A DNA stretch of 64,000 nt from Eledone cirrhosa (taxonomy: Eukaryota). How positions within the stretch are numbered: the first letter of the stretch is position 1; every line of letters starts with the position of its first letter. Under the pieces are notes generated by a model. That model had not been told where the DNA came from. It searched no databases and saw nothing but the letters and a program-made list of their open reading frames with translations. Shown piece by piece: positions 9,093-64,000 of this stretch. The stretch covers positions 197,532,001-197,596,000 of the forward strand of contig OZ024741.1 in assembly GCA_964016885.1 (NCBI GenBank). The letters run 5' to 3'. The translations under genes and the position numbers were made by a program.

Positions 9093-9116
9093 CGGCACTT
9101 GGATTGGCACTTGGAA

Positions 9117-9306
9117 GGCGGTGGATTGGCAGTATCGGTAGAGGGTCGGACGCCATGCTTTCCAGCATAGTTACGTCCCTTTACGATCTGATTTCAAATC
9201 CCGCCGAGGTTGACTTTGCCTTTCATCCTTACGCGGTCGATAAAATAAAGTACCAGTAATGCACTGGTGAATTGCTGGCCTTGTGCCTAAAGTAGAAACA
9301 ATTATT
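9117..9306 (+). mobile_element. tRNA-derived SINE, full length (octopus-type, Meta-like core)
   Basis: A-box TGGCAGTATCGG, B-box-like GATTTCAAATCCC, core GCCTTTCATCCTTACGCGGTCGATAAAATAAAGTACCAG, tail GGCCTTGTGCCTAAAGTAGAAACAATTATT. Confidence 0.9.
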
Positions 9307-15360: not shown

Positions 15361-16153
15361 CGAAGACTTCCGACACCTCAACAACGGTCATCTTTAATAG
15401 TCTGTTTGCTAAAAGGACCAATTAACACGGGGTTCGGCGAAGAAAGCTTACATAGAACACTTAAACAAAGAATACTTTTGCCGCTAATCCTAACTTAGCT
15501 GCTTTAGTTAGTTCAGTACCGTATGTATGCACAACCAACCATGTAAAATATTCTACTTCCTCCTCCCCTCCTCCTACTTCTTCTTCTTCCCCTCCTCCTC
15601 CTACTCTTCTTATTCTTTTTCTCCTCCACCTTTTCCTCTTTGTTGATCGTTGTACTCTGTTCTCTCTCTTCGTTGTGTACTTTTCGGATTCAAACCTCTA
15701 CAACTTATAATTGTCGCCTGGATTGTATGATATTCTACAACAAACAAAAGACAACAACCTAACTGTCCGGCCATTTGCAGACTATGCATTGGAAATTTTT
15801 TTTTTGTTTTGTTTCATTTCCCCCCATGTCCTTTTGTGTTATAAATCCTTTCCCTCATATTTCTCTGTAGCAATTGATCGCTACTAGCTGTTGAAATGAG
15901 GAAACAATCATCGTGGATTTATTCTACCTTCACGGAGTTTCTCTTAACTTGTTACTATGCTCCATGCAGCTAGCTGGGGGAAAAACTTATGTTCTTATCA
16001 AGATAAGGGGGGAAATTCTGAACCAAGTAATACATATTTCACCTCACAGAACTACATACGTCCCATCTCAAAAATCTTACCCGCACAATTTTTGTTACAG
16101 GTAAACAATCCTCATAGACAAAACAAAAACTCCTAAAAATTTTGTTGAGAGTG

Positions 16154-16493
16154 ATGCCGCGGCCGGGAAATCATGGCTGTTTTTCATTCCTCCATTTACA
16201 GGAGGATAACGCTCGTTTCTTTTTGCTTTTCATTGTTATGATGGGCTACCTTTTGGTAGGAGCCGGTATCTTCACAATACTCGAGTCTCCAAACGAAGAG
16301 GCTGAACGGATAAAAATCAACGCATCGGTCGAGGCTTTTCTAGAAAAATACCCAGAGGCAAACCGCACAGATCTGGAGTTACTTTTACTCGAATATGCTC
16401 ACGCAAGTGCCGCCGGGTTCGTTGAAGGTAAATCGGCTCGTTGGGACTACGTTGGATCTTTTTACTTTGTTGGTACCGTTGTCTCAACTATAG
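16154..16493 (+). CDS. KCNK13: First coding exon of a THIK-type two-pore-domain K+ channel (KCNK12/KCNK13-like): M1, cap and P1
   Basis: MPRPG..LHLQEDNARFFLLFIVMMGYLLVGAGIFTILE..RWDYVGSFYFVGTVVSTIG matches the THIK signature (EDNARF, FYFVGTVVSTIG). Phase-1 donor G|GTAAGT lies inside the P1 TIG codon. Acceptor ttttgttacag| at 16100 gives a 53-nt 5'UTR segment. Symbol indicates family, not strict orthology. Confidence 0.93.
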
Positions 16494-16894
16494 GTAAGTG
16501 CTTGTCCCATTTTATCATCGTCCGCAAACACTGTTTTCTACTTGTCTTTATCATATATGGCTATGTATGTATGCATGCATGCATGCATGCATGTATGTAT
16601 GTATGTATGTATGTATGTATGTATGCATGCATGCATGCATGCATGTATGTATGTATGTATGTATGTATGTATGTATGTATGTATGTATGTGTGTATGTAT
16701 GTATGCATGTATGTATGTATGTATGTATGCTTGTATGTGTATGTTTGTATGAGCATGTCTGTATATATATATATATATATATAGACATGCTCAAACACAC
16801 ACATGTGTGTGTATATATATATATACACACACACACACATATATATACATACACACACACACACACACATATTTATATACATACATACGGGTAC

Positions 16895-21024: not shown

Positions 21025-21100
<76 letters not shown>

Positions 21101-25904: not shown

Positions 25905-26332
25905 CATACATATATATATATTTAAATATACACCCGCATTCATTTATTCATTTATTTATTCATTTATTTATTCATTTATTTATTCATTTATTCATCTACA
26001 AATTAACATCTGATTACATAAAAATATAGATGTCAGACACGCACTGTGTGTACATATCAATATGTATGTATATATATATATATATATATAGTAAATCCAT
26101 GTGTGTGTGCGCCAATGTATGCATATATTAATCCGAGTGTGTGCGTGTGCACAAATGAGTGGGGTAGTCAATATATGCAGTAGGCAGATGTGTAGAGGTG
26201 ACGGTTAGATGCGATTGTATGTTTACCTATATATATATATCTGTGTTTGTGTATAGCTATATGCGCGTATATATTTCTATAATGTTATGCTTATATAAGT
26301 AGGCATGTACAGACACATACACGTGCACGCAC

Positions 26333-26435
<103 letters not shown>

Positions 26436-26619
26436 TATATATATATTCATCTATATATGTGTGTATATAGATATATGTACGTAAACATTTCTATAGTTAT
26501 GTAAACAGGCACACACAAGCACACACACTCTCTCGCTCTTTCTTTCTCTCACACGCACACACACACATACACGTACACACACACACACACACACCTGTTT
26601 ATATTTGTTTTATGAATAA

Positions 26620-28320
26620 AGTTGTTGTAGCGTTGCTGTAGATGTCTCTGGATACACACTCCTGTGTCTCACCAGTAGTTGTTGGAAATATAGACATGAT
26701 ACACAGATGTCATACCATGCTTTGGCTAAAGTGAGAACCATATTGCACACTCCAAAATACACTATTAAATCATATGGCACAAGCCGCATGATTCAATAGC
26801 ATATTTGCTCACACTTCATGATGTCAACAGATACTTGTACTAACATGGTGGACCTGGGAGATACGACAGTTGCTTCTTCTGTATTAACTAATGATAGTAG
26901 ATATCTCAGTCGAATATTTGTTATTTGTTGGCAAAGAACCAGTAAGTGTCTATGAATAGTTCATATTTATATTCGTCCAGGCAGAATGGAGGCTATTTTC
27001 TTATGTATTAGTAGTGATGTGAGGGCTAAGATTTTCTGTAGTATTAAACTGTGCTGGATCGACATATCTGCTACTTTCTTTGGCGTCTGTTTCAAACCAG
27101 ACGTAACCTCATCCCAGTTTCTACTACACATAAGCCGAAAGGGAGCTATTTCTGAAAGATGCGCCAGCGATGGCGAACGCTTAACTCGCCTTCGTTATAT
27201 ATTACCGCCTGACCATCGTGTGTTTCCCTAGTTTTCGAATATGTGTTCTTTCGTTTCTTGCGGAACGATCTAGTTCAATCGGTCAGCAGGTGGTTCACCT
27301 GTTGTCAACAGCGGACGGTGAACAGATGAGGTCGCTCTTTGTTACATACGTATTCCCACAATTCGCGTTTTTGACAGAACTGCAGTCGTAATTCAAGTGA
27401 AGTTCTAAAACAGAGGCCTGTTACCTGGAATGTTATCAGGGTCCTTAAGCCCTCTACCAGTCGGTAGAATTTCTATTAAGTATTCTATAGAGGGTTAATT
27501 ATCAAGAAGATCAACTACGTTCAAAGGAAATTCTGATCATAGACAAGACTCAAAAGACTGATCTATTCAGGAACCTTTCCGGCCTAGGCAATCTAGATAA
27601 CCAAAAGTCGCTGGCCTAACAGTGCTCGCTGGTGTATTAATGTTACGAGATAAAATCCACATGCAATGAAGTTCCATCAGCTGAGGTTGTTCGATGTGTA
27701 CAATGAGAGATGAAATCATGGTGTACAAGCATTGCTGCCTTGGCGAATTTTGTCAACGGCTGTTGTTACGTGTAAGACGGACCTAGTTCCCAGTCTATTA
27801 TGAAGATTGCTCTGCGAAGTCCAGCGTGAACATTACTCCGCTGCTTTCCATTGGCCTGCTCTAACGGGTAGATTTTTTCTGGCGAAAGATGTAATGGGAT
27901 GAATTTCACCGACAGGACTGTGTGACTGTGTAGTAAACATCACCTGAATAAAGGGATCTACTCACAGCATGTGTCTGTTGGACGGGCAGTGTTAGCTGGG
28001 TGTAAGCAGTTACCCTTGATAGCATAGATAATCCTCTATCTGAGGAATTCCTTGGTTGATTCTGGGTTGCGGTCCTTTTGTCTTGGGATTCTATCCCACA
28101 TTTGTATATTATTTGATTTGTATATTTATCTGATTTCTGTGTAAAATCAAATATTTGTAACCATGAACACATCAGTCAGTTGATTTTTGTCAATGCTCAG
28201 AATTTCCATTGGAGCTTACGTGCTTTAATAATTTATTAGTCCTCCGTGGAATATTAACTTGAAGTTCTACCGGCTGCAGTTGCCGACTCATAGACGTCTT
28301 AAATCATCTGGAAAACAAAT
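26620..28320 (-). mobile_element. Highly degenerate LINE (RT domain remnants)
   Basis: Weak QYG.. and ..YR..LLS-like remnants on minus near 26700-26930; non-repetitive island. Clade not assignable. Confidence 0.4.
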
Positions 28321-28339
28321 GTGACCTGCCACGGTTATT

Positions 28340-28460
28340 GGCAAATGGGACGAATGTTGCGAAAGTCGATAACAGCAGCTAAGATATTGTCGGTGGTGCG
28401 TGAGTGTGTGAAGGTCAAACCACCTGGTTTAGATGATCTATATTACGAGTTTTATGAATG
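28340..28460 (+). mobile_element. Tx1-like LINE fragment
   Basis: KSITAAKILSVVRECVKVKPPGLDDLYYEFY resembles the SPGLDGLPYELY region at 60730-60830. Confidence 0.6.
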
Positions 28461-30300
28461 CGTCAGACTTGAAAAGGTACTTACTCTTAATATTCAGGTT
28501 AATTCTGGTTGTGTGGTGTTGCTTGATTCGCCTTACATAAACATCCATTTGCGCGCAGTAATATTCAATACCGTTTTATTTATACTTCTAAATCTCCTAA
28601 TTCTTTGTAATTTTCCTTGTAATGCCGTCTCATCGCCTTTTCGACGGAGTCATTACAGCGCTGCACAATATTCTTTGAAATATTTTTTATCCACATTCGG
28701 GTTGTTTCAATGTTTTTATTGTTGATACTGCCTTGTTTATGGCAAGTGTGTTCATTGTCCACATATGAGGAACATTGTCAAAAGCCATCTGGTAATCAAT
28801 GAAATTATTATGAAATCAATGAAATCAATGAAATCATTATGAAATCAATGAAATCATTATGAAATTATTTTTATTTTTTCTGAAGTTTTCTGTTATGGCT
28901 GTAATGACCATATGAGCCTTTGCAGCATCCGTTCTGTTAATTCTTGGGGATCAGTGTGATTTTCCGCTTAATAAACCAGTCGAGTATCCATTAGAATGTC
29001 AGTTAATTTTTTTGCAAGTACACCATGTGTCCCTGTTAAATATTTCAACGAGAAGTTTGAGATTTTGTCACGTCCTGTTGCCTTCCAGTTGCTTGCTCTT
29101 TTTCAAGGTTTTATTAACCTCCTCCATTGTGATGTCGTCCCATAGTTATTCAGGGGATATGTTTGTTCTAACTAGTTATGTGCATGGAAATTCCTTTGCC
29201 TTTCACAGTCCACTTCTTTTACTTTTGGGGCTACATTTATCTTTTTTTTTTTGCTTCTACTAAGTTTCTGATAGAATCGTTTGGGGTTGGAGTGAAATTG
29301 CTGGTTGGTTAAAAAATCTGTTAACGTTTTTCATATCTCCTGATTCTTTGTGCCTTGCAAGTATTTGTTTTTTAAACATTCTTTAGTTTCAGAGATTTCC
29401 CTTTCAATTATAATTTTTTATGATTTTATTTTCTTCCCCTTTACTGTGTTGTATTCTTTCCTATTTCATTTAAAATTGAGAGATCTTTTATTTTATTTTC
29501 TATCATTTTTTGTATTTTTGATTGTGTGTTTTTTCTTGTTTCTGTGGTTCTAAGGGAATATCCACTTTCTTTTTATATCAACAGTGTCTGCTGTATATAC
29601 GTTATTTAGGTGGATTGGCAGTATCGGTAGAGAGTCGAGCACCATGCTTTGCAGCATAGAGTTACGGTCCTTTACAGTCTGAGTTCAAATCCCACCGAGG
29701 TTAACTTTGCCTTTCATCCTTATGGGGTCGATAAAATAAAGTACCAGTCACGCACTGGGGTCAATTTAATCGACTTCCCCTTCCCCCAAATTACTGGCCT
29801 TGTGCCTATATAAGAAACCGTTATTTAGCCATATGATTCTAATGTTTCTCTTTGTGTCAATTAAGTCCATGATGGCCAGGTTAGCGTTTTTCATAATTGT
29901 TGCTATATCATCATTGCCTTTTATGTTTGGGAGGTGTATTCTTTCGTCGACATGGAGATCTATTGTTTGGAGTTCTTGGATTATTTCCATCTTTGTCCTA
30001 TTGTAGTCCTGAATTCCGGATTATTTCCATCTTTATCCTATTGTGGTCCTGAATTCCGTCTTCAGGGCTTCATATTTCCTTTCATTTATATTTTTGGCTG
30101 TTTTCCTGAATCGGTTTTTGTTCGTCAATATTCTCTCAGTTCGCGTTCGGTGCGTTTTGTTGTTGACTTTATCTGTTTTTGAATTTGTTAGTTCTATTTT
30201 ATGATAGAAAATTTCAATTTGTTGATACTAGTTAGTTGTTTTTTGTTCGTTATTTGTGTTTTCGTAGAGTATTCGTATTTTATTATTAAGATTAGCAGAA
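28460..30300 (-). mobile_element. Degenerate R4/Dong-like (RLE-type) non-LTR retrotransposon
   Basis: Minus IDYQMAFDNVPH (cf. WIDYKKAFDSVPH); frameshifted; interrupted by a SINE. Confidence 0.6.
29608..29825 (+). mobile_element. SINE, long-tail subfamily
   Basis: Full A/B box and core; tail has extra GTCAATTTAATCGACTTCCCC segment. Confidence 0.9.
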
Positions 30301-30680
30301 AAACCACCTGATAGCATGTGTAGTGTGTATATTGATATTATACATGTATTATGCATGTATTACACATGATATTATGCATGTAAATAAAATCGTAATTGAC
30401 AATATACACAGAAATTGAACGAAGACTGTGTTACACTGTCTTCTGTAATCAGTAGAGTAATCCATGATACATTTAAAAAAAGACGATATTATATATAAAC
30501 TGCATTAGGAGAAAATTAGCGATTATAAGTGTTATAATATAACGGCCGCTAACCGGAAGTGTTGATATTTGACAATTTTAAAGAAGTGAATCTTTAAATA
30601 AGCTATAGAATATATTTAATCAACAGCCACGAAATTTAGTAGATAAATTATGTAATATTCATTCATTATTTATTCAAAGG

Positions 30681-30870
30681 AGGTGGATTGGCAGTATCGG
30701 TAGAGGGTCGGACGCCATGCTTTGACGTATAGAGTTACGGTCCTTGCCATTCTGAGTTCAAATCCCGCCGAGATTAACTTTGCCTTTCATCCTTACGGGG
30801 TCGATAAAATAAAATACCAGTAATGCACTGGTTAATTGCTGGCCTTGTGCCAAAAGTAGAAACAATTATT
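30681..30870 (+). mobile_element. SINE, full length, with TSD
   Basis: Flanked by direct repeat ATTATTTATTCAAAG. Confidence 0.92.
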
Positions 30871-32838
30871 TATTCAAAGTAATCCAACTTATTTTACAAA
30901 CGGGGTAAAAAAAATATATTCTGGATGCAGTCCTGCACTCCTTACTTTATTATAGTTAAGATTATTATTATTGTTGTTGTTGCTGTTGTTTTTGATAGTG
31001 GTGGCGGTGGTGTTTATGGTATTGTTGTTGTTGTTGTAGGAATGCAAGTTATGACTGAATTTTAAGGGTCGTGTTTTATTTAAATTTAACCCCCCCCCCC
31101 CAGTGAATCAATCAGGCGCTGTTTCTAACTCCGTCTCTTTCTTGTTCAACTTTCCTGCTATAGCACCTTGTGTATCATTGTTATATATTTTAACTAGATT
31201 CTATCGTATCTTAGTACTTTTCATTTATTCAGTATTTTTAATGAGTACGTGTTACTTCTGCTGTTATTTCGCCCTACACGATTGTTCAGATGCTATTCTC
31301 GTTGTTTTAAATACACCTGTCAATAGAGAATCCTTATCTTGCTGTTGGTGCTGTATTGATTTCTATCTTTTTCTTACTAGATTCGGGGGAAATGGTGATA
31401 GATTCGTCGTCATTTTCATAGCGATGGATTTTTTGCGATTGAGTGAGGATCTCTTGTTTCAAACGGTCTTTGATTATGGAATTATTTCGGTGTGTTATAT
31501 TCCTGTAGGAGTTGTCGCTCCTTTCTCTTTCTCAATTGTGTCGTTTTGATATTGATTTGATTAAGGATTGTGTATTAGTTTTCCACGTTGTTTGATTTAG
31601 TTTTCATGTTGATATTTGAGTACCCACTTTCTTTTGTAACTACAGTAGAAGATACATATAATTTTTCATTTGACCTGCAAGTATTCATAGTTGTGTTTGT
31701 TTTAATAGTGTAATGCCCGTATTTGTGTGAGCTTTTTATTGTTTTTGTTGCAATTATATCGTTCGGTTTTATCTTTGGGAGGTAGTATTATTAGTAAAAA
31801 ATGTCATATTTTTGTTAAATCTTGAAATATTTTCACATCTAGATGCTCATGAACATGATTTCCACCTTTATTAATTTATTTCTTAAATTCTCTTTAAATT
31901 TGAATTTTTGATTGTATCTTTCTGATTCGGTGTTCGTTTGTATTCTGTAGGTCTTCAGCGTTTCAATGGGCCGGTTTCTCGTGTTTTGTAATTCACATTG
32001 GTTGTTTTTGGTCGCTTTCCTTGTTCTATCTTGGTGATTTAAGTTCTCAATATAACCATCTCTCTCTGTGCCTGTCTCTCTCTCTCTCACACACACACAC
32101 GCACACACACACACAAACACTCTCTCACACACACCCATATATAAATATTTTATATATTATATATATTATATATATATATATTATATATATATATATATGT
32201 TATATATTATATATATATATCTATATATCTATATATCTATATATTATATATATATTATATATATCATATATATATATGTTATACATATACGTCTATATAT
32301 CTATATATTATATCTATATATATATCTATATATTATATATATATTATATATATATATATATTATATATATATCTATATATTATATATATATTTATTTGAA
32401 TATATATATCTATATATTATATATATATATTATGTATATATATATATATTATATATATATATATTATATTTATATATTATATATATATTATATATATATT
32501 ATATATATATTATATATCTATATATATATTATATATATATATATATATATTATTTATGATAAGACATATGGAGAATAGGTTTGGCTGTGTAGGTGCTAGT
32601 TAAGGTAGCTTAAAATGGAATGAGAATAACAGGTTCTTGTTTTCTTCTTATTCTCATTCCATTTTAAGCTATATATTATATATATATGATATATATATAT
32701 TATATATATATATATATTATATATAAATTATATATATATATATTATATATATATTATATATATTATACATATATTATATATATATATTATATAATATATA
32801 TATATTATATATATATTATATATATTATATATATATAT

Positions 32839-32955
<117 letters not shown>

Positions 32956-32991
32956 TTTTTAGAATCCATATTCAATAAACAAACCAGGATT

Positions 32992-33051
32992 TTTCATTCT
33001 GAGGATTGAAAGCAAAACCTTTTGCTTTTAAGAAACCACTGGTAAATGGAA
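32992..33051 (+). ncRNA. Type I hammerhead ribozyme
   Basis: TTTCATT-CTGAGGA-TTGAAAGCAAA-acct-TTTGCTTTTAA-GAAA-CC-act-GG-TA^AATGGAA; in a ~200-bp element (32954-33150) whose tail resembles the Penelope pLTR tail. Confidence 0.88.
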
Positions 33052-33151
33052 TAATTGCCTTGTTGTTTATTACATAATAATAATAATTAAGCTCTGTTGC
33101 TTACATAGAGCACTCTTTTTTCCTGGACTTTTCCGATGGAATTACTTCATT

Positions 33152-33576: not shown

Positions 33577-33829
33577 AATATGGTTTTATAAATATAGTTT
33601 CCATTTGTTTAATATCGTATATATTATATATATATATATATATATTACATATATATAGATATATATTACTGGTCATTCCGTATGGTCAACCTCGATGTAA
33701 CATTATGGAGAGCACTCAACGTAATGCAACTCACCTGTCTTCGTTTGTGTAGTTGGTGGTGCGAGTACGGAGTGAATTATTATAAAACAACAGGAGGCTG
33801 GACTGGTGTAAATCCTTGAAAAGCTTATT

Positions 33830-34607: not shown

Positions 34608-35125
34608 TATACTAATTAGTTAGGGTTTAAATTTGTTTTTATGTAATATGTGTGCGTAATATGTGTACGTAAATAGTTTGTTTAAAAATGGGCGCAGAAG
34701 GCAAAGAAGAAAAGAATGTTTAAGGAAGAAAATATCTAACATCAAAAAATATATATGTTTACGAAATATTTTCTAATGGTAATAATATAATATATTAAAA
34801 GAAATTAGTTAGGGTTTAAGTTTGTTTTTATGTAAAAGTCAAACGAGCATGAAAGGATGAGAAGAGAAATTTAAGGAAGAGAAATCTAACGTCAAAAAAA
34901 CTTAAACCCTAACTAATTCCTCTAAATTCATAACTCATTCATTTTGCTCCTTCTTTTCACATTATATCCTTAATAACATTAATATTTTTATTTTAATAAT
35001 ACATATTAATAATTTCTTTTCCTAGCACATATTATTAAACCCATCAATATACAAACCTTAATTTAATATTATTCTTAATTACTTTTCCTCTTCATGCATA
35101 AACCTCATTATCTTATATTATATAG

Positions 35126-35511
35126 GGCGGGGGATTGGCAGTATCAGTAGAAGGTCGGACGCCATCCTTTCCAGCATAGTTACGTCCCTTTACGGTCTGA
35201 GTTCAAATCCCGCCAAGGTTAACTTTGCCTTTCATCCTTACGGGGTAGATAAAATAAAGTACCAGTAATGCACTGGGTAATTGCTGGCCTTGTGCCAAAA
35301 GTAGAAACAATTATATATATATAATAATGGCGGTGGATTGGCAGTATCGGTAGAGGGTCGGACGCCATGCTTTCCAGCATAGTTACGTCCCTTTACGCTC
35401 TGATATCAAATCTCGCCGAGGTTGACTTTGCCTTTCATCCTTACGGGGTCGATAAAATAAAGTACCAGTAATGCACCGGGTAATTGCTGGTCTTGTGCCT
35501 AAAGTAGATAC

Positions 35512-35516
<5 letters not shown>
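35126..35516 (+). mobile_element. Two tandem full-length SINEs
   Basis: 35126-35313 and 35328-35516. Confidence 0.92.
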
Positions 35517-35610
<94 letters not shown>

Positions 35611-35715
35611 CCATATATTATATATATATATCATATATTATATATATATCACATATTATATATATATCCAGTAATGCACTGGGTAATTGCTGGCCTTGTG
35701 CCTAAAGTAGAAACA

Positions 35716-35761
<46 letters not shown>

Positions 35762-35763
<2 letters not shown>

Positions 35764-37548
35764 GCGAGATACTGCAGAAACAATACTGCTCTGTTTTCAG
35801 CAATCCTGATATGGCCGATCTGGGCCGTATCAGTGATGTTAATCCCCAACACACTATATCAGACATAATGTTTGGCGCCCCTGATGTCTTAGCGGCAATA
35901 AACGAAATTAAACACAATTCAGCAGTAGGCCCTGACAGGTTCCCTGCTTGTGTCCTGAAGATGTGCCGACTCCAACTTGCATCTCTTCTTGCAAATCAGT
36001 GGAGGAACTCACTGGACACTGGCTATATTCCTGAAAACTTTCTGTCCCAATCCGTTGTCCCAGTCTTCAAAAAGGGAAATAAGTCCCTTGCAGTGAACTA
36101 CCGTCCGATCTCACTCATCTCTCATATTATCAAGATATTTGAGAGGGTCGTGAGATCACGAGTAACCTACTTTCTTGAAAGCAACGGCCTGCTGAACTCC
36201 AACCAACATGGGTTCCGTAATGGAAGGGACTGCCTAACGCAGCTCCTGCATCACTTTAACGATGTTTTGTAAGTCTTGGGAGAGGGCTCCAACACTGATG
36301 TCATCTACCTTGACTTCAGCAAGGCCTTTGACAGGGTTGATCATAAGATTCTACTGAAAAAACTATCCAATGTTGGTGTCTCTGGAAGGTTACTACAGTG
36401 GATCAAATGTTTCCTGACAGGCAGAACCCAGCATGTTGTAGTCGAAGGAGTAAAATCAAGCCCTGCCAAAGTCAGCAGTGGCGTTCCACAAGGCACTGTG
36501 TTGGGCCCACTTCTTTTCATCATTCACATTAATGACATTACTGACATCATCAAGCACAGCAACATCAGAATCTTCGCAGACGATTCCAAGCTCCAAAGGG
36601 TCATTAATAAGGTGGGTGGCCTGACTTGCCTTCAGTCAGACCTACTGGCTGTTATCCAATGGGCAGAAATGAATAATATGCTGTTGAATGAAAATAAATT
36701 TGAATTAATCCACTTTGTAAAAAAGGATGCCCTGAAACTACCATACTCTCTTTCTTCGGGTGAAACTCTAGTGGCATCTAATACCATCAGAGACTTGGGA
36801 GTAATTGTGGACAACAACATAAGCTGGGCCACTCTTATAAACAGCAAAGTTGATATGGCCCGCAGAATGTGTTCCTCGATTCTTAGAACTTTCCAGTCGA
36901 GAGATATCCACACTGTTATCCTTCCCTTCTCCACTTTTGCCCGACCCCACCTTGAATACTGTTGTCCACTGTGGTCATCCCACACGAAACAAAGTATCAT
37001 GAAAGTTGAAGAAGCCCAAAGGTCAATTACAAAAAAGATAGATGGCATGACAGGCCTTGACTATTGGAGTCGATTAGAAAAGCTCAAACTTTATTCTCTC
37101 CAACGTCGCCGCGAGCGCTACATTATCTGTATGATGTGTAAAATATTCCATCAGCTTTGCCCAAATGATGTTGGCATCAACTTTAGTGTACACCTAAGGC
37201 TTGGGCCCCGTGCTTATACGCCCACAACAAAAATCTCACTCGCATCACATAACAACAATACGGCACAATTATTTCACCTCAATTGGCCCTGCACTCTTTA
37301 ACATTACACCAAGACACATCAAAGCAGAGACAGACCCCATCAAGTTCAAGAAGTCTTTGAATAAATTCCTTCAAGAAATCCCGGATAAGCCTCCTACACC
37401 CGAATATGCCTCCGTAAACAATAACTCTCTGCTCGAGTGGGCCATGGTGCCCAAACACTGATTTGTAAGACTTCGCCATGTGGTGCTATTAAGTTAGACA
37501 TGGCCTGGGCCAATACTGGCCGAAACCTATTAAAGTTATCAAAGTTAT
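35762..37548 (+). mobile_element. 5'-truncated CR1-like LINE (RT) inserted in (TA)n
   Basis: NYRPISLISH, QHGFRNGR, YLDFSKAFDRVDH, GVPQGTVLGPLLF, FADD; one stop at 36270 and a late frameshift; tail TAAAGTTATCAAAGTT. Confidence 0.92.
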
Positions 37549-40695: not shown

Positions 40696-41371
40696 AATAG
40701 AATGAAACGAAATTTCATTTCTCACTCTTACGACGACACTTACTTAAATGTAAGTATGTATGTATGCGTACATACATATATATATACAGACGTACAGTAG
40801 TGTGTATATATATATACATACATGCACACATATATATATGCACGTATCGGTTTACCGAACATTTATTATAATGCTCGGTTTGTTTGTTTGTAAACAAACA
40901 AACAGCCCGAATTACGCCGTACAGTGTTTAGGCAACCACGTCACCTTTTTGTTCAACACTGACACAGGAACGATGTACTAGTTTCAAGTTTATTAGCTAT
41001 CATCAGCATCGTATACCTTCCTGCCAGATGGTTGAACGTCTGAAAGTATATACTTTCCTTATGCATATTAACGTCTGAGCAGCTTAATTTGCATATCGAG
41101 TGAGTTCAGACGGCCAGGCACACCGAAAACGATAAATGGAATACAATGAAACGAAATTTCATTTCTCACTCTTAGTACGGCACTTACTTAAATGTAAGTA
41201 TGTATGTATGTATACGTACATGCATATATGTATACAGACGTACAGTAGTATGTATATATATACATTCATGCACACATATATATATGCACGTATCCTGTGT
41301 CAGTGTTGAACAAAAAGGTGACGTGGTTGCCTAAACACTGTACGGCGTAATTCGGGATGTTTGTTTGTTTA
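40693..41371 (-). mobile_element. Family F retrozyme-like element: ~444-bp monomer in partial tandem, plus an inverted segment
   Basis: 40693.. repeats at 41137..; 41294-41371 is the reverse complement of ~40890-40968. Confidence 0.8.
40970..41012 (-). ncRNA. Type I hammerhead ribozyme (family F)
   Basis: Minus: ACGATG-CTGATGA-tAGCTaataAACTt-GAAA-CTAG-TA^CATCGT. Confidence 0.85.
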
Positions 41372-43188: not shown

Positions 43189-43273
<85 letters not shown>

Positions 43274-43600
43274 CTTACAATTATCTTACAATATATATAT
43301 ATTATCTTACAATTTCTTTTTCAACATATATTATATACGTATTTGTGGTCACACATACACTGATATGCTTGCCCTCACATATGTACTTACGCACACATTT
43401 TTTCACTATACACATGCATTTGTACATACACACATATGTACATTTGTGAGTGAATATACACACATTTATACACATACCCAAACTATATTTCCTTATTTTA
43501 TTTTTATATATCTCTTGCATTACTTTTATTTATATATTCTTTTGCCCGTTAAACTTTTGCCTTTCTTGAAGAGATTTTTCAAATATTTCACTATGTTTTA

Positions 43601-43678
43601 AATTGCCTTGTCCGACGAACGAATCAGGACGTTTCTTGTATTCGTCTTATTCGGGAAACCTCTGGTAATGAGGTAATT
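43601..43678 (+). ncRNA. pLTR hammerhead ribozyme, CCGACGA core
   Basis: AATTGCCTTGT-CCGACGA-aCGAAT..ATTCGg-GAAA-CC-tct-GG-TA^ATGAGGTAATT; 11-bp stem I. Confidence 0.85.
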
Positions 43679-43892
43679 ATATTGTATTCTTTATAATACA
43701 TTAAATTTAGCGCTGGTACATAGAGCACTCTTCACTCCTATGACTTTTTCAATTTTCAACGGAAACTTCAATACTTATACAGCTCCCAAGGGAATGATCG
43801 TAGCATATTCTACATTTTTATGAGATTGGTACCTTCCAGCCCTTTTAAAGTCCAGCACTCTTCAGTCAAAAGGATTTTAACCAATACTGAAC

Positions 43893-46017
43893 ATGGATAA
43901 ACATAATTTGGATTACTCCATCAAGAATATCCCAACACCTTCTAACACTTCCTACACTAAAATGCTGATAGACAAAGTAGAGAAAGTTGTTAAAAGAATG
44001 AGATGGAAAGCTTTGATTTTCGATGAACACTTTAACACGGACTCTACAGAACATTTTGATATCGGGTCTCATAAATACCCACAAAGAGTAAAAGATATGA
44101 CTGCTTTTGAACTGGACTTAGTTAATTTAATCAACCAAATCAAATTCCGTAAGTACTCTAACCCTTTTCAATCTAAACTATCTAATGATATTTCAATATT
44201 CAAATCTTCTAAAAATAAGTTCATTTTCTCTGACAAAACTAAAAACTTATACGAAGTTATTAATAACTTCCATGACCAACTCTTAACAGATAACATCACC
44301 TCTAAATACCAAATAGCTAATATAAACACTTATAATACTATAAATAAGGAAGCTAAAGAATTAGCTAGTTTTTTTAAAATAGACAATAGAACAGAAAAAC
44401 TTGCTAAACGTAATGCCTATATCACCCTCAAAGATCACAAACCTGATTTTATTAATCGTCCTAGTTCTAGATTAATCAACCCTGCTAAGACTGAAATCGG
44501 TCTTGCTAGCAAAAAAATATTAAATAATATACACAAACATATTAGAAGTAAGTCTGAATTACTCCAATGGATAAATAGCTTTTCCGTAGTACATTGGTTT
44601 AATAATATTAAAGATAAAAATAGTTCTAGATTCATCCAATTTGACATTGTAGACTTCTACCCGTCTATTACTCACCCTCTTTTAACGAAAGCCTTAAATT
44701 TCGCTAGAAAGTTTATCAATATTTCTGATATTGAAGAGAATGTCATTTTGCATGCTAGAAACACTCTACTTTTTACTAATAATGACACTTGGGTAAAAAT
44801 ATCTAACCCAGAGAACCCATTCGATGTCTCAATGGGTTCTTTTGACAGTGCTGACGTGTGTGATTTGGTCGACCTATTCCTCCTACACACACTTAAAGAG
44901 AAATTCCCTAACCATACCTTTGGGCTTTATCGCGACGATGGTCTAATACTTTACCATACCACCATAGGCCATATCTTAGATAGATTAAGGAAAGACTTAT
45001 TAAAAACCTTCGCTAGTTTTAATCTTAAAATTACTATTGACACTAACCTTTCCAATGTTAATTTTCTAGATATAAACCTAGATCTGCCTACTGCTTCTTA
45101 TAAACTATACCATAAACCTAATGAAAATTTAAAATATATAAATAAAGGCTCTTGCCATCCTCCTATAGTTTTTAAAAACCTTATCCCTAATATTAGCCGT
45201 AGGATCTCCACCCTCTCTTCTTCAGAAGCTATTTTCCCTACTATAATAAAGCCCCTCAAAATAGCGGATTTAGCGAACCGATTAAGTACGTACCCAACAA
45301 TACTAACTCCTTTAAGCATAATAATAGGAAAAGAAAAATAATCTGGTTCACACCCCCTACTCTTTAGCAGTTAAAACTAATGTAGGCAAAACATTCCTAG
45401 AGCTCTTAGATAAACATTTCCCTAGAACATATAGATACTATAAGATCTTCAATAGAAACTGTGTCAAAATCAGCTACTCCTGCGGTCCCCCTATTAAATC
45501 TTATATCCTCAATAAGAAAATACCCAGAGAACATCAAAATTGCTCCTGTAGAGTCAAAAGTGAATGCCCATTACAAGGTAAATGCAACACCAAAGCCATT
45601 GTATATGCGGCTAAAGTGACAACCACCAGCAACAACCTACCATCCACCAGCGAACGCTATGTGGGTATGATACAAGACAAATTCAAAACGCGTTATTACT
45701 CACATGTCGCATCTTTCCGACATCCTGAAAAAAGATTTACAACAGCTCTGGCTAGCAGAATATGGGATTTGAAAGACCAAGGTATCCAATATAAATTGGA
45801 TTGGTCAATTTTGAACCAATCTAAAGAATATGCAAGAGGAACAAGAAGATGCGCACTCTGCATAAGTGAAAAATATTGGATTTTACATAACATTAAATCA
45901 CCAAAAACCTGCCTAAATGCAAAAACAGAAATTTTCACCAGTTGCCCACACATGAAATCACACTTGCTTTCCAGCTCATATAAACTTAACTCACTTTCAG
46001 ATACTTATCCTCCATAA
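43893..46017 (+). pseudogene. Penelope-like RT plus GIY-YIG endonuclease ORF, frameshifted near 45240-45360
   Basis: FSDKTKNLY, RLINPAKTEIG, QFDIVDFYPSI, SMGSFDSA, YRDDGL, FLDINLDL; C-terminus CSC..CPLQGKC..IVYAAKV..YVG..FKTRY..H, CALC..EK, SCPH. True start may lie upstream. Confidence 0.92.
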
Positions 46018-47260
46018 ACTCTTGTTCTTCACTTTCCTTAAATTACCCTCTTTACAGACTTCTCTTTCTGATTTACTTTTATTTTTATTTGTAACTTTAT
46101 TTTTACTTCACATCCACCAGTGCCCCCCACCCTGCTTTTTGATTCACTTACCTAATATCTTCACAATTCCACACATTTTACTTCCCCATTTTCTTTCACT
46201 ACCTGATATCACTTGTCACTTGCGTTTTCAACTCCAGATATATTCTGTTGTCTCTCAGCCGCTTTTATGTATGTATAATTTGTACTCATTTATTCATTCG
46301 GCTGGTTTTTAATTTGTATCTATGCGTGTGAGTGTGCATGTGTGTGTGCATGTGTGTGTATGCGTGTTTGTATACGAACGCATTCGTATGTGCGCGTGTG
46401 TGTGTATATGTGTGTGTGTATGTGTGTTTTTATATCTATGTTTTTTACATACTTATATATACGTGTGTGTGTGCACGTATATGTATATATATATGTATAT
46501 GTATGTATATATATGTATGTATGTGTGTATATGTATATAGTCGCGTACGTGCGTGTGATTAGATATACATGTGCCTATATATATATATGTGCTTCGTGTG
46601 TATGTATGCGCGCCTTTGTATGTGTGTACGCATGTATGTGCTTTTGTCTGTACGTATTTCTATATATATTTTTATATATATATATGTGTACGTACGAACC
46701 TATGTTTGTTTTCTATTTTCTCTAGTGTTACTTTATAATTGATAACCCCTCCCTCTTACTTTCTCTTTGATTTAAAATTTTTGTTTTATTCTCATATATG
46801 TATCGAGCCTCAGACTGACACTGCTTTGACTGATACACTCCCTTCCCTGTATATATCACTCGCATGTATGTGGTCGCGTGTGTGTGTGTTTATACGCGTG
46901 CTTTCATGCCTGTATGTGTATATATTTCAATCCTTAATACCGGAATCTGGATGTTCGTTAACTCTATTATCTTACAATTTTTTTTCAACATATATTATAT
47001 ACGTATTTGTGGTCACACATGCACTGATATGCTTGCCTTCACATATGTACTTACGCACACATTTTTTCACTATACACATGCATTTGTACATACACACATG
47101 TACATTTGTGAGTGAATATACACACATTTATACACATACCCTTACTATATTTCCTTATTTTATTTTTATATATCTCTTGTACTACTTTTATTCATATATT
47201 TATTTGCCCGTTAAACTTTTGCCTTTCTTGAGGAGATTTTTCAAATATTTCACTGTTTTA

Positions 47261-47338
47261 AATTGCCTTGTCCGACGAACGAATGAGGACGTTTTTTGTA
47301 TTCGTCATATTCGGGAAACCTCTGGTAATGAGGTAATT
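47261..47338 (+). ncRNA. pLTR hammerhead ribozyme, second copy, CCGACGA core
   Basis: Same structure as 43601-43678. Confidence 0.85.
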
Positions 47339-47588
47339 AAATTTAGCTCTGGTACTTACATAGAGGACTCTTCACTCCTATGACTTTTTCAATTTTCAAC
47401 GGAAACTTCAATACTTATATATATATATATATATAATTTTTATGCTTACATAGCAGAACGTATGTGTAAAAAAACCCACACCGTCTGTGTATTACTCGTG
47501 ACAGTATCTTGTTAGCTCAATGTACGAAAACAGAGCCGTTATAGTAAGAGAAAACAAATAGCGCTTATAACAACAATCGATTTTTATT

Positions 47589-54725: not shown

Positions 54726-54900
54726 CGAAGGAAGTGTGGTAAGGAACCAGGTGGACCATAACGCACCAGTGTACTCAATACTTAGGGTAGTAGAGTGGGT
54801 AATAGGAACATTTTCAAGACCTCGACGGCAGAGCTCAAGCCGTTTCGACGGCTATAGTCGTCGAAACGGCTTGAGCTCTGCCGTCAGGGTCTTGAACATT
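54725..54900 (-). mobile_element. Family E fold-back element
   Basis: Arms ~54813-54854 / 54855-54896. Confidence 0.72.
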
Positions 54901-54960
54901 TTCCTATATATATATATATATAGTAATAAATGGTAAATATATCACTATAGCATCATAATT

Positions 54961-55020: not shown

Positions 55021-55155
55021 CAATATTAGATGCATAAAAATGTGACATTCTCATAATAGAGATCGCATTCGATCAATTCAAAATGGGTATGTGATTCAAA
55101 ATCTCAAAATTTCCTAGGACGTAAAGTTATTGGGAAATATAAACAAATAAATAAA

Positions 55156-57738
55156 TAATTGTTTCTACTTTAGGCACAAGGCCAGCAATTACCCAGTTCA
55201 TTACTGGTACTTTATTTTATCGACCCCGTAAGGATGAAAGGCAAAGTTAACCTCGGCGGGATTTGAACTCAGATCGTAAAGGGACGTAACTATGCTGGAA
55301 AGCATGGCGTCCGACCCTCTACCGATACTGCCAATCCACCGACCCCAACAAATAAATAATAAGGACAGTTAAAATAGACGCTAGAAATTGCTTGATATAT
55401 ATATATTTCTTATTTGCTTTTTTTCTGAAATCGTAGTGTTCTTTAATACAATACTTATAGCTTTAGAGGGTGAGTGAGCTGTCACGCAATGCAGCCCCTG
55501 CAGCTAATGATGAGCCTTACCCCAAATCTTTGAAACGGATAAGCTCTCATAATCAACACCCCAAGAAAGGCCTCTTTAGACCTGGCCAGTTTTATAAAGT
55601 GGCTACACTCAACTGTAGAATTCTAAGCACTGCATCGTCAAAAGCTGAGCTCAATAAACTCAGGAATTACTACATCTCTGTAACATGCATTCAAGAACAT
55701 CGTTTGTACATTTTCACTCCAACCCAGAAAAGTTGCACTCAATCTTGGGTCTACAACTCTCTTCACTGCATCTGCTGTTCAAAATGACTGTGAGACTTCC
55801 ATCCGAAATATGGACACTTTTCTCGACTCAAAACTACTACCTCTGCTCCTTTCAGTCCCAGAAGATTGACAAGCATATCGTTTCTGTCACATTTATGGGA
55901 AATCCCAAGACAGACTTGCTTGTTACTCTCCGCACACCAGTTTGCCGGATGATGTAATTACTGACTTCTATTCCAAACTAAACAACAGAGTTGAGGACAT
56001 TCTGATCCATTCGATGCTTATCCTCATGAACGCACAAATCGCGAAGGGTTTCTCATTGTATGACACACCCAATTGCAATGGATTTCTCCTTCTCGAATTT
56101 ATCGAACAACATAATCTTATCATCGGGAGTGTCCCCTTCCACAAATCGTTGAACCAATTATGAACATTATCGGGTGCCTTATCGCAAATTGATTTCTGCA
56201 GGTATCGAAAACGATGCCAAGCTTTCTCATCATCTACATCAATTGGGAACGATCACCGCATAATAACAGCAACAATAAAATTCAGTTTGCGACGCCCGAA
56301 ATTTCCAGGAAATTGTTCAAAGCTCTAGTCAACCATATAGATAATTGTTTCTACTTTAGGCACAAGACCAGCAATTACCCAGTGCATTACTGGTACTTTA
56401 TTTTATCGACCCCGTAAGGATGAAAGGCAAAGTTAACCTCGGCGGGATTTGAACTCAGATCGTAAAGGGACGTAACTATGCTGGAAAGCATGGCGTCCGA
56501 CCCTCTACCGATACTGCCAATCCACCGACCCCAACAAATAAATAAATAATAAGGACAGTTAAAATAGACGCTAGAAATTGCTTGATATATATATATTTCT
56601 TATTTGCTTTTTTTCTGAAATCGTAGTGTTCTTTAATACAATACTTATAGCTTTAGAGGGTGAGTGAGCTGTCACGCAATGCAGCCCCTGCAGCTAATGA
56701 TGAGCCTTACCCCAAATCTTTGAAACGGATAAGCTCTCATAATCAACACCCCAAGAAAGGCCTCTTTAGACCTGGCCAGTTTTATAAAGTGGCTACACTC
56801 AACTGTAGAATTCTAAGCACTGCATCGTCAAAAGCTGAGCTCAATAAACTCAGGAATTACTACATCTCTGTAACATGCATTCAAGAACATCGTTTGTACA
56901 TTTTCACTCCAACCCAGAAAAGTTGCACTCAATCTTGGGTCTACAACTCTCTTCACTGCATCTGCTGTTCAAAATGACTGTGAGACTTCCATCCGAAATA
57001 TGGACACTTTTCTCGACTCAAAACTACTACCTCTGCTCCTTTCAGTCCCAGAAGATTGACAAGCATATCGTTTCTGTCACATTTATGGGAAATCCCAAGA
57101 CAGACTTGCTTGTTACTCTCCGCACACCAGTTTGCCGGATGATGTAATTACTGACTTCTATTCCAAACTAAACAACAGAGTTGAGGACATTCTGATCCAT
57201 TCGATGCTTATCCTCATGAACGCACAAATCGCGAAGGGTTTCTCATTGTATGACACACCCAATTGCAATGGATTTCTCCTTCTCGAATTTATCGAACAAC
57301 ATAATCTTATCATCGGGAGTGTCCCCTTCCACAAATCGTTGAACCAATTATGAACATTATCGGGTGCCTTATCGCAAATTGATTTCTGCAGGTATCGAAA
57401 ACGATGCCAAGCTTTCTCATCATCTACATCAATTGGGAACGATCACCGCATAATAACAGCAACAATAAAATTCAGTTTGCGACGCCCGAAATTTCCAGGA
57501 AATTGTTCAAAGCTCTAGTCAACCATATAGATAATTGTTTCTACTTTAGGCACAAGACCAGCAATTACCCAGTGCATTACTGGTACTTTATTTTATCGAC
57601 CCCGTAAGGATGAAAGGCAAAGTCAACCTCGGCGGGATTTGAACTCAGATCGTAAAGGGACGTAACTATGTTGGAAAGCATGGCGTCCGACCCTCTACCG
57701 ATACTGCCAATCCACCGCCCTACTGCCAATCCACCGCC
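55156..57738. repeat. Near-identical 1.19-kb tandem duplication bounded by three minus-strand SINEs (55156, 56342, 57532)
   Basis: Identical ORFs offset by 1190 bp (55470/56660, 55942/57132). Confidence 0.95.
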
Positions 57739-59049: not shown

Positions 59050-62000
59050 ACCTAATACAACAAGAAGAAAACAGCAACAAAATCACCCCTTCCCCCCAAA
59101 AGTACACAGCCATAAACATGGCAAATAAAGAATCATACAACATATAAAAAAAAACGACTACACCCCTCCAACACCAAGAACTCTCCCGACAAACATAAGC
59201 ATCATTGAAATCAATATAGAACATTACAAACTTTTAAAACAAAAATTCCCCAACGCAGTTGGAGACTTCAGAGGGTCGGTTACCAAGAGGATATACACTA
59301 ACATCCTCTTGGAAACACCCATGACCAGCCAAACGGACGGTTCTACTGTCCCTTCACCACACAATCAAGGTAAGTGACCCTTTCTCACTTGCCCCGTTTC
59401 TCATCCAGAATGGCCGTACTTAGAATAGGCAGTATAAATGTACGTGGCCTGGGGTCATCTTGAATGCAGGGTCACCTGCTCAACGACCTCAGGTCACTAA
59501 ACATAGATGTGGTGGCCATCAGCGAGACCAGAATATCCGAAGCACGAGCCTTCGCACCGATCTTCGGCGACTACGATGTATACGCATCTCCCGGCCGTCC
59601 AGGATCGGGGGCAGGTGTTGTCGACTTTTTGAGAGAGGCTTGGATCTCGCCATACGGGCCATCTTCTTGGACCCAGAAGGCAAGTCGGTGGTGCTGGACG
59701 GTACCGGCAGCGAAGGCAATGCTTTCAGGCTAGTAGCCATCTACGCCCCCAACTGGAGCAGGACGGCCAGATTTCTTTAGACGTCTAGAGACCTTTCTTG
59801 GAACGTCCCGCTCTTTAGTGTTAGTGGGAGACTGGAACGGTATCTTGGATGCACGCTGGGATTGTGTGGGGCTTTTGGATAGGGGAGGAGAGTGCAAGAG
59901 CCTCACCAACCTGCTCAGACGTTTTGAACTGTCTAACAGGTATCGACTGGATCACCCGAATGTGCCAATGTGGACATGGACAAACCGTATCGGGTCATCC
60001 AGATCGTATCTCGATAAGGTATTCTGCAGAGAACTAGATAAGGCTAATATAAGTTGTCCACAATTTAAAATAGTCGATCACACAGACCACAAATTTGTGA
60101 TCTGTGAAATCGACATAGACAGACTTCAACCGACAAGGACCCGGTTACTGGAAGCTGAACGCGTCTTTCCCGGCGCGCAAAGCCTACAGAGACTGGATTA
60201 GCGTATTAGTTAAGCGGGCGTTGACGGGAGCGGTCGTCAACAACAGGTGGTGGTTTACCCTGAAAAGGGCAATTAAAGTAGAGTCGATTAGGTTTAGCAA
60301 AGGACTAGTGATAGAGGAAAATAGAGTAGAGGGAGAGCTAGTCAGAAAGCTAGAAGAGGCGTTTAGGATAGGCATCGCAACCGACGTTCTGCATCGAGAT
60401 TGGCACTCGACCGATTCTTCAACGCAAAACACGAAGGCTGCGTTGTCAGAGCTAGAGAGCGTGCTCTGAAATACGAGGGGACGTGCTCTGAAATACGTTC
60501 AATGGGCCCGGGTGGCAGAGGCGCGACGTGACAACAAAGCCACAATTCGGTCTTCGTCTGACCAAAACGGGCGTGTGTTGCTCGAACCCGAGCAGATGTG
60601 TGAGGCTTTTCAGCAGCACTTTTCTGAACTGTTAGGGAGCAGCGGCGGGCCGGATCTGTGTATGGACTTCAGTGCATACCACGACGGACTGCCTCGGCTC
60701 TCAGCGACCGCAAAACAGTGTTGCGAAAAGACAATAGCAGCCGGTGAAATACGGGAAGCGATGGCTAACTGTACGAGGGGTATATCGCCAGGTTTGGATG
60801 GTCTGCCCTACGAGCTTTATGCATTTATGCCAGACTTGTTCGATGACCTCTTGGCAGACGTCTACTGCAAATGACAGCAAAACTGGAGCATTCCCAGTTT
60901 TGTGAGACGGGGAGCGGTGGTGCTGCTGAGAAAAGACCCGAACAAGGGGATGTTATCAATAACTTCAGGCCCATAACCCTGCTAAACGCAGAGTTCAAAA
61001 TTTTGTCCAAAGTTAGTTAGCAACGAGGTTGGAGTTTATCGTCGAGGATCTGGTGGGAGAGGCGTAGGCATGCGCCATTCCGGATAGATCCATACACGAC
61101 AACCTCCACCTCATGCGATACATCATAGAGAGGGTGGTAAGGGAACCTGGCACGGGTGGGGCCCTGATCAACTTGGATCAATCCAAAGCATTCGACAGGG
61201 TTGACCGTCGGTACCTGGCGGCGATCCTCGATGCAGCCTGTTTTGGGCCCGTTTTCAGGGGTTGGATTGCTGTGATGTACAGCGACACCTCCTCAGTTTT
61301 GAGGGTGGACAGTCACCTGTCGCAGCCGTTCAGCATCATGCGTTCGGTCCGTCAGGGTTGTTCCCTCTCGTCTCTCTTGTACGTATTGGCTCTCGAGCCG
61401 TTACTGCACAAACTGGGGGCGATCCCATGGTCAGACGATATATCTGCTGTCAACACTCGTTGCGTGGAGGACTGGGCATGCCATGGCTGATGATGCGCAA
61501 ACATGCGCTGAGGCTGCGACATCTCTGGTGCTTCCTTGACGGTGAACAGGTGTGGTCGCCGTTCGCCAGGCACGTTTTCCCACAGCTCGTCTCCTTGACG
61601 GAGCTGCAGTGGCGGGTCAGGAAAAGACCGAGGGATAGTACTTGGTAACTGGAATGTCTCCAGGCGCTCACCGCCCTCTGCCAACTGGGCACCAGTATCG
61701 GTGGAACATCCACCTCGGCGTTCTATAAAGGACTAATGTAGGGAAGAGCGACGACATTCTCGGAGAGATCCTGGGCGTCGAAGAATATCAGCTGTTTGCT
61801 CTCTTGCGGAGAACTTTCAGCTCAGGGCCTAATGGATAACTTTCAAAAATCCCTGGCCTGGGAGTGCTACCAGAGAGCGTTGCCGGTTCGATATAAGCTC
61901 TACAGGCACGGAAGTGCCGTCAGCCGATCCTGTCTGAGACGCGCGCAGAGCGACGAAACCGTCGTGCACGCACTCGTTCAGTGCCCGGGCATTGCTGACT

Positions 62001-63383: not shown

Positions 63384-64000
63384 AAGTAGAAGGGGTATTT
63401 AATTTGTTGGAAATCCGACAAATATAAATATAAATGTTTATAACTGATTTAGAGCACTCAACAAATAACCAAAATAGCAGTAATAATTCTAGCAATATCC
63501 AACCTAATAGTACCGTTCCGAGCAACAACAACTCCGCAAAATGTAACTAGAATTAAATCAAATTGTCCTTTACAAAATAAGTGTTTAGATAAAAATGTGG
63601 TCTATAAATGCACAGTTAAAACTAGTGATAATATATTTAACTATGTCGGTGCCACTTCTACAGAATTTAAAATTCGCTGGAATAACCACATTTTTTCTTT
63701 CCAAAGATTTGATAAAAAATCTTCAACTTCTCTTTCAAACCTGATATGGAACTTAAAATGCAAGAATATAGACTATTCATTAGCTTGGGAAACAGTTTCA
63801 CGAGCACCCGCGTACCGGAACACAGCTCTATCTAGATTCTGCAAATTGTGTATTGAAGAAATTTTTTATATACTTAACTGTAAAAACTCAATTAATCTAA
63901 GAACGAATTTATTTAATTCCTGTAGACATCGCCAGAATTCAACATTCAATTTCTTAAATAATTACTTATCTCTTAAAAAATTATTTTTTTTAAAAGATTT
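63384..64000 (+). mobile_element. Second Naiad-type PLE: 5'-truncated GIY-YIG domain preceded by a probable inverted pLTR end
   Basis: From ~63550, not in the ORF track: IKSNCPLQNKCLDKNVVYKCTVKTSDNIFNYVGATSTEFKIRWNNH..LIWNLK..CKLCIEE..NSCRH; 63384-63500 carries GTTGAGTGCT on minus next to (TA)n. Confidence 0.85.

Follow-up and report, generated by a model that had tools for sequence, protein, structure and literature searches.

The 64,000-nt stretch of the Eledone cirrhosa genome analyzed here (contig OZ024741.1, positions 197,532,001 to 197,596,000 of the forward strand; hereafter the window, numbered from its first letter) contains, at 43301–47419 on the plus strand, a Penelope-like element (PLE), together with a swarm of small elements bearing hammerhead ribozyme motifs. 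We describe this element, a bulged hairpin (termed the box) that occurs in pairs in its relatives, and the positions at which their copies end. The element is delimited by two direct repeats, or pseudo-long terminal repeats (pLTRs), at 43301–43779 (479 nt) and 46966–47419 (454 nt), with 15 mismatches over 450 aligned columns and 33 gap columns; the left one is a 5′-truncated tandem copy of the 3′ end, and the right one finishes at the 3′ terminus, 47419, 51 nt past its box. An open reading frame (ORF) and a long 3′ untranslated region (UTR; 46018–46965), which is (TG)/(TA)-rich at about 46320–46950, lie between them. The left target tract (43190–43300) consists of (CA)n and then (TA)n microsatellites (43190–43269), followed by two extra copies of the 11-nt pLTR start (43270–43280 and 43281–43291). 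The initial 11 nt of the pLTR are in this way present three times within 43270–43312, with TA between the copies, and this triplication at the 5′ junction likely reflects aborted or repeated re-priming. On the right side, a (TA)n tract (47416–47435) is common to the element and to a small hammerhead element of the minus strand, the two lying tail-to-tail.

The ORF extends from the ATG at 43893 to a stop at 46017 and is split among three frames: 43893–45235, coding for an N-terminal domain and the reverse transcriptase (RT; RWK at 44001–44009, DKT at 44232–44240, and YRDD at 44928–44939); 45236–45352, coding for the thumb/linker in a shifted frame; and 45353–46017, coding for a CxCX5C linker (45541–45567) plus, at the C-terminus, a GIY-YIG endonuclease that has CxxC, E, N, and CxH, and is without CCHH. 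In tblastn comparison with intact homologues the frame is broken twice and no more, near 45236 and 45355. Other copies of the family, in contigs and reads of four public runs, carry 13 additional bases at 45235 and one at 45352, and both lesions are therefore specific to the window copy; these runs may contain the window's own source, and what they show is other copies, not independent species. Moreover, 13 of 145 near-invariant residues are altered (10 of 105 in the RT and 3 of 40 in the endonuclease). With two frameshifts and these residue changes, the window copy is dead. The first-pass annotation, which was made from the sequence alone, had described a pLTR-ORF-pLTR structure with an RT and a Cys-rich GIY-YIG domain, TA tracts on both sides, and about two frameshifts, and the analysis bore out all of these points.

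Of 8000 candidates scored in a search with the RT part, 784 proved to be homologues; the best 120 share 41–60% identity, many are about 700 aa long, and the intact ones cover both the RT and endonuclease domains. The structural model of the RT (pLDDT 92.5) gave the telomerase reverse transcriptase (TERT) structure 3du5 as its top Protein Data Bank (PDB) match in Foldseek (E 4.6e-9). The C-terminal model (pLDDT 87.8) was aligned by VIA-align most closely to I-TevI (Z 9.4, rmsd 2.3, 90 aligned residues), followed by T4 EndoII (Z 7.7) and UvrC (Z 6.3), and Foldseek returned nothing below E 0.001 for this model (the GIY-YIG match was weak, E 0.38). Pfam detected neither RT nor GIY-YIG in the window ORFs or in five intact homologues, a PDB sequence search gave no relevant match, and no relatives were found in viral contigs.

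The TERT-related RT, the GIY-YIG endonuclease in the same ORF, and the pLTRs derived from a partial tandem are features of PLEs. Within these, the Hydra clade has been defined by a C-terminal endonuclease, the motifs RWK, DKT (in place of DKG), CxCX5C, and CxxC/CxH, the absence of CCHH, a canonical hammerhead near the 3′ end, and insertion into (TA)n (PMC8557442). The window element has the endonuclease at the C-terminus, RWK at residue 37, DKT at 114 (DKG and DKA being absent), CxCX5C at residue 549 of the read-through translation, CxxC..E at 652, and N..CxH at 674, the CxxC/CxH residues lying around the E and N. Residues 564–651, which span the GIY-YIG core, contain no Cys; CCHH is absent, and the insertion lies in (TA)n. 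Each Hydra motif is present in 55–60 of 60 related ORFs. Judged by these diagnostic motifs, the element almost certainly belongs to the Hydra clade; the tree of related ORFs contains unnamed homologues only. The unit is 3.64 kb long because of its microsatellite-rich 3′ UTR, whereas Hydra elements are "generally" below 3 kb, a tendency in the defining source and not a diagnostic character (PMC8557442). Like the Hydra clade, of which the octopus element Hydra-1_Obim listed there is an example, the window element has a single ORF of about 710 aa with RT and C-terminal GIY-YIG, a hammerhead or hammerhead-like motif toward the 3′ end, and a (TA)n target. The RWK, DKT, CxCX5C, CxxC, and CxH motifs and the lack of CCHH are likewise common to both, and the N-terminus of the Hydra-1_Obim consensus is similar by eye to that of the window element. 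The window family differs from it by a different hammerhead, with a U4C core, and by its unit length (3.64 kb versus less than 3 kb), and is a separate family of a clade that was itself described in 2021.

The first-pass annotation had called the element a Naiad-type Penelope. The PLE assignment, with hammerhead-bearing pLTRs in (TA)n, held, but not the Naiad part, since the endonuclease is C-terminal and the motifs are those of Hydra. Naiads share with the window element a PLE RT, pLTRs, inverted partial copies, and a (TA)n bias; they differ by an N-terminal endonuclease, DKA, CCHH, and the lack of a canonical hammerhead (PMC8557442), and their own features also include a CxC motif and usually an IFD. 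An N-terminal GIY-YIG, DKA, an endonuclease CCHH, and the lack of hammerheads were all contrary to what was found in the window element. The accompanying statement that Naiad/Chlamys PLEs carry hammerheads disagrees with that source, where Naiads are defined as being without canonical ones.

Each pLTR contains a three-stem type I hammerhead-like motif with an 11-bp stem I on the plus strand: 43601–43678 in the left pLTR (core CCGACGA...GAAA, predicted cleavage after 43667) and 47261–47338 in the right one (predicted cleavage after 47327). In both, the core reads CCGACGA instead of CUGANGA, a U4C change. By contrast, position 4 is U in all 43 related families that were scored, and also in reads of related copies. 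U4C has been reported to reduce activity in vitro while still permitting viroid infectivity (PMC3088659). A structural scan for type I hammerheads gave eight matches in the window, seven of them scoring at least 12, a level reached by nothing in the 20 Markov controls. With Rfam, the window was without a match at the gathering score. Folding support for the pLTR motifs is modest: z −2.25 for the left one (6 of 200 shuffles equally stable) and z −1.32 for the right one (18 of 200). A hammerhead is located 3′ of the ORF in 58 of the 75 related loci with enough sequence.

The word GAGCAC, close to the hammerheads, is the 3′ portion of the box, a bulged hairpin of the form GCUC-Y-(variable stem-loop)-R-UH-GAGC-ACU. 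For its analysis 78 metagenome and 16 genome-collection loci were fetched and four weak bacterial RT matches excluded, leaving loci L001–L090 (68 families at 80% nucleotide identity). Across the clade the box occurs twice per unit: box B 3′ of the hammerhead, and box A 13–41 nt 5′ of the ATG. Two boxes spaced 34–57 nt apart were present at 47 junctions, and a box (in a few cases the B copy) lies within 136 nt 5′ of 65 of 77 ORF starts. There were no matches in 131,229 nt of ORF sequence, and in the 90 loci 144 matches are sense versus 12 antisense. In the window element, box B is found at 43710–43728 in the left pLTR, with one substitution in the 5′ arm and a shortened loop, and at 47346–47368 in the right pLTR, with one substitution in the 3′ arm, both on the plus strand; GAGCACTC is confined to the left pLTR, the right one having GAGGACTC, and in reads of other family copies the 5′ arm of box B, GCTCT, is intact. 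A degenerate box A candidate (GCTCC; 43782–43806, plus strand) begins 2 nt past the position where copies of the family end, which fits the terminus rule given below, and its 3′ arm is degenerate. A second, weak candidate (family D15; 43839–43858, plus strand) lies 34 nt 5′ of the ATG, a spacing that fits box A of the relatives.

Pairing within the box was counted on anchored positions, because MAFFT misaligned its short arms. At the family level there are 93 boxes (49 B and 44 A), of which 90 have a Watson–Crick Y-R inner pair, compared with a shuffle mean of 49.9; the three remaining cases are two over-long parses and one wobble. The next two pairs are kept in 57 and 51 of the 93 boxes (shuffle means 28.0 and 22.5), while registers without the 2-nt bulge pair in only 3 and 1 of them. 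Inner length ranges from 8 to more than 20 nt. Since such shuffles ignore kinship among families, the state of box B was also mapped on a 37-family tree (of the 49 B boxes, 3 were excluded as mis-parsed or ambiguous, and others lacked a 300-aa ORF). This revealed six double changes between C-G and U-A, five of them forced by starred branches; some state changes could stem from copying between boxes A and B. In families L023 and L026 the pair states are swapped, box B being C-G and box A U-A. Folding energy alone is weak support for the box: the decayed boxes of the window copy had z values near 0, and the intact box of a small element z −2.41.

The box appears to be undescribed so far. The main text of PMC8557442 contains neither "hairpin" nor "stem-loop" and does not mention the pair, and no description was found in the literature searched, outside which most of the subscription literature, notes in Repbase, images of figures, and supplements to bioRxiv preprints might hold one. 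The supplement of PMC8557442 itself contains box 9-mers four times, in three of six new Hydra consensi, versus twice, in unrelated places, in its far larger Naiad and Chlamys files; line breaks may hide matches in these counts. No Rfam family matched the box at E ≤1 in eight loci. Several candidate identities were dropped: the histone stem-loop, since the loop of the box is long and variable; an HDV-like ribozyme; and a palindromic DNA octamer, position 8 being C in only 57 of 103 cases. Two further occurrences of GAGCACTC were likewise discarded as boxes in their own right: that at 63452 lacks a 5′ arm and belongs to the linker-coding part of another Hydra fragment, and that at 33710 is a minus-strand A-U box seen in reverse complement.

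Copy ends were then related to the box positions. Of 46 loci alignable to a junction of the same family, 12 enter the next unit, 11 reach the contig end, and 23 have a terminus. Fifteen of these 23 3′ ends, in 13 of 17 families, fall within −8 to +1 of a box start, eight at box B and seven at box A (binomial P 1e-14 under a uniform null with p 0.05, and 3e-6 under a TA-weighted null with p 0.20). The bases from −8 to −5 are mostly T/A. In contrast, 5′ ends are scattered from −690 to −35 of box A in the 11 mappable cases (53 further cases being unmappable). In the window family, 24 contigs of run X1 and three of run X4 exit into TA-rich sequence at the equivalent of 43779, and the window element itself terminates 2 nt 5′ of the degenerate GCTCC box of the continuing left copy.

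A similar arrangement was found among the small hammerhead elements of the window. That at 32954–33150 (plus strand, microsatellite-flanked) has a canonical hammerhead (core at 32999), an intact box (33091–33113), and a tail, and is likely the 5′-truncated 3′ end of a sister Hydra family. It is the sole small element resembling the window family (81.6% identity with the pLTR over 49 nt, E 1e-6). The layout match that the first-pass annotation had drawn between the pLTR and the small elements, this one above all, is thus real but short, and a G-type box 5′ of a microsatellite was present in only one of 18 other hammerhead-core sites with the first descriptor. Once an A-U closing pair was allowed (ACTC/GAGT variant), 15 matches at 14 sites were obtained, versus a mean of 2.4 and a maximum of 9 in 40 Markov controls. 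When pairing was not enforced, 18 of 42 descriptor matches lay 25–130 nt 5′ of a microsatellite (background 12%), and both variable pairs were kept in 14 of these 18 compared with 8 of the other 24. In four close pairs of elements (24598/24476, 33519/33454, 48369/47631, and 33991/33883) the short copy ends at −5, −2, −3, and −7, respectively, of the box of the long copy, and much of the swarm therefore obeys the two-terminus rule. The alignment of a further pair, 18148/18156, overran, and by eye its end lies near −8; ends at −15 and −18 came from two comparisons between families. The small elements mostly carry the A-U variant and hammerheads unrelated to those of the window family; they may simply be what is left, after 5′ truncation, of the 3′ ends of other autonomous families. 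At 26000–32700 no further PLE ORF was recognized, and no head-to-tail hammerhead arrays were found among the small elements. Three copies of a hammerhead element at 41006, 53408, and 53705, microsatellite-ended and with a different 3′ hairpin, possibly represent another PLE clade. On the minus strand, a box at 33773 has a loop insertion of about 50 nt and retains both closing pairs and the bulge, and a long near-perfect palindrome with hammerhead-core-like words (about 54800–54910) lies directly 5′ of an A-U box plus tail, with related tails at 24901 and 21355.

Taken together, covariation and copy ends suggest that Hydra RNA carries two conserved bulged hairpins that probably set the start of reverse transcription. 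The RT-endonuclease would bind a box in a tandem or ribozyme-circularized transcript; the endonuclease would nick (TA)n, and the free 3′ end would anneal to the UA-rich bases directly 5′ of the hairpin and prime cDNA synthesis. A start at box B would yield copies without box or tail, and a start at box A copies with box B plus spacer, a stretch of 55–83 nt that would be the Hydra form of the PLE "tail". Copying of more than one unit would give rise to pLTRs. Since both boxes would lie at the 5′ end of a hammerhead-cut monomer, full-length copying would need a circular or uncut tandem template; a circular template has been proposed before (PMC4209133). The small hammerhead elements would arise by the same chemistry from intact Hydra-like families elsewhere in the genome and not from the window copy. 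More tentatively, and with somewhat less than even confidence, the boxes may form a telomerase-like initiation module, in which the hairpin docks the TERT-related RT beside a UA alignment stretch, nicked (TA)n acts as the primer through base pairing, and two modules explain the tail.

The proposed start at the boxes has a precedent. In Poseidon, of which one element has been reconstituted in vitro, AT-rich DNA is nicked by the protein, and cDNA synthesis begins at either of two internal positions, the interval between them being the tail (PMC11167929). For Poseidon PAc of Anolis, the AT-rich nicking and the two starts bounding the tail are thus like those inferred for Hydra; the PAc start lies within the ORF, in a stem-loop that is AC-rich, and the start site has no homology to the target (PMC11167929), whereas Hydra copies end outside the ORF, on UA-rich bases 5′ of a doubled, sequence-conserved hairpin, and the tail measures 55–83 nt versus 30–40. 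Non-LTR retrozymes, characterized by head-to-tail tandem hammerhead repeats and circular RNA, are also short type I hammerhead elements for which mobilization by PLE proteins has been proposed (PMC7229834; bioRxiv 10.64898/2026.07.22.740005); the small elements of the window, unlike these, are single or inverted pairs between microsatellites, and their spread may be non-autonomous.

Several observations speak against RT start at the boxes. The −8 to +1 interval was chosen post hoc, after the junction survey; 8 of the 23 termini do not fit it, TA microhomology draws apparent ends toward the box, and junction-alignable loci number only 46, half of them (23) finishing at the contig end or in the next unit. 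Box A is degenerate in the window copy. The A-U variant was not seen at the box positions of related loci, tblastn found no RT remnant beside small A-U elements in the window, and the small elements at 17254, 40420, 43090, and the 41006/53408/53705 group have no clear box. In addition, Poseidon insertion in vitro does not need hammerhead cleavage (PMC11167929). Finally, orphan box-plus-tail pieces at 21099 and 48498, like locus L087, start exactly at the box right after (TA)n, which also fits cutting at the DNA level: the box might act as a cDNA hairpin or cruciform that GIY-YIG recognizes, cutting adjacent TA-rich bases, so that ends would mark endonuclease resolution or insertion into the element's own pLTR instead of RT start. 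Covariation is blind to RNA versus single-stranded DNA, the tail has been ascribed to endonuclease-mediated resolution (PMC8557442), and cleavage at an element's own ORF–pLTR junction is described in PMC11167929, which also cites a tail requirement of the D. virilis endonuclease. We nevertheless regard this DNA-level action as unlikely: 3′ ends cluster, yet the majority of the 5′ ends that were mapped lie at a distance from any box; the inner length of the box, from 8 to more than 20 nt, is unlike that of a duplex-DNA site; and the ends of the Poseidon tail have been mapped to RT starts (PMC11167929).

The boxes could also be signals of promoters or of RNA processing (an internal promoter, splicing, or 3′-end formation), with copies ending where transcripts end or are processed. 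The location of box A 13–41 nt 5′ of the ATG, the promoters and introns in PLE pLTRs (PMC8557442), and a GT donor-like site 3′ of the hammerhead in the window pLTR agree with such a role, which becomes quite improbable in view of a stem that covaries around a fixed 2-nt bulge and of the same motif at two positions, each with its own 3′-end cluster. The least probable explanation, to which we give very little credence, is that proposed by the first-pass annotation, whereby a Naiad-type family mobilizes the entire swarm in trans. Targeting of (TA)n is common to Naiads, and octopus Naiads exist (PMC8557442 supplement); one small element resembles the window pLTR, and in run X1 the depth is 215,886 at the pLTR hammerhead versus 1,300–1,800 at the 5′ ORF, a ratio that is not copy number and that 5′ truncation alone predicts. 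The Naiad part is refuted by the C-terminal endonuclease, DKT and not DKA, the absence of CCHH, and the presence of hammerheads; moreover, the window copy is broken and most small elements are unrelated to it in sequence. A helper role is plausible at the clade level, where the box and the two-terminus rule are common, but the window copy, with its lesions, could not fill it, and for the window family the role is unproven, since the motif is found throughout the clade and the majority of small elements combine unrelated hammerheads with the A-U variant.

Other features were recognized in the window and in the related loci. A 5′-truncated fragment of a second Hydra family follows (TA)n at 63386–64000; its endonuclease is 37% identical to that of the main element over 139 aa, and its 3′ end lies beyond the window. 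Loci L079–L090 are Hydra elements in a prokaryote genome collection, mostly on short contigs of metagenome-assembled genomes from host-associated samples, and are likely contaminating animal host DNA and not bacterial elements. By their translations (endonuclease plus RT), the segments at 35706–37298, 59700–61700, and 3597–5800 (minus strand) are presumably remnants of non-LTR retrotransposon-like elements, and 16118–16500 is exon-like, resembling a segment of a two-pore potassium channel; the surrounding DNA may belong to an intron. A short, roughly 200-nt interspersed repeat recurs many times (9100–9305, 29609–29766, 35103–35559, 55151–57720, and others), and 55151–57720 also contains a near-identical 1.4-kb tandem duplication.

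The element itself is an ordinary dead member of the Hydra clade; what is of value is the paired hairpin. A short, covarying, clade-wide RNA signal at both classes of terminus makes it possible to test how the RT start site of PLEs is selected, why the tail is optional, and what allows small hammerhead elements to exploit PLE proteins, and to do so with an RT whose sister is telomerase. The box also offers a simple marker by which hammerhead fragments stranded in microsatellites can be attributed to drivers of the Hydra type. If the telomerase-like module is true, small RNAs of whatever origin that combine a hammerhead with a box would be mobilizable in trans; this would amount to a portable (TA)n-insertion signal of about 40 nt and to a rule explaining the hammerhead swarm.

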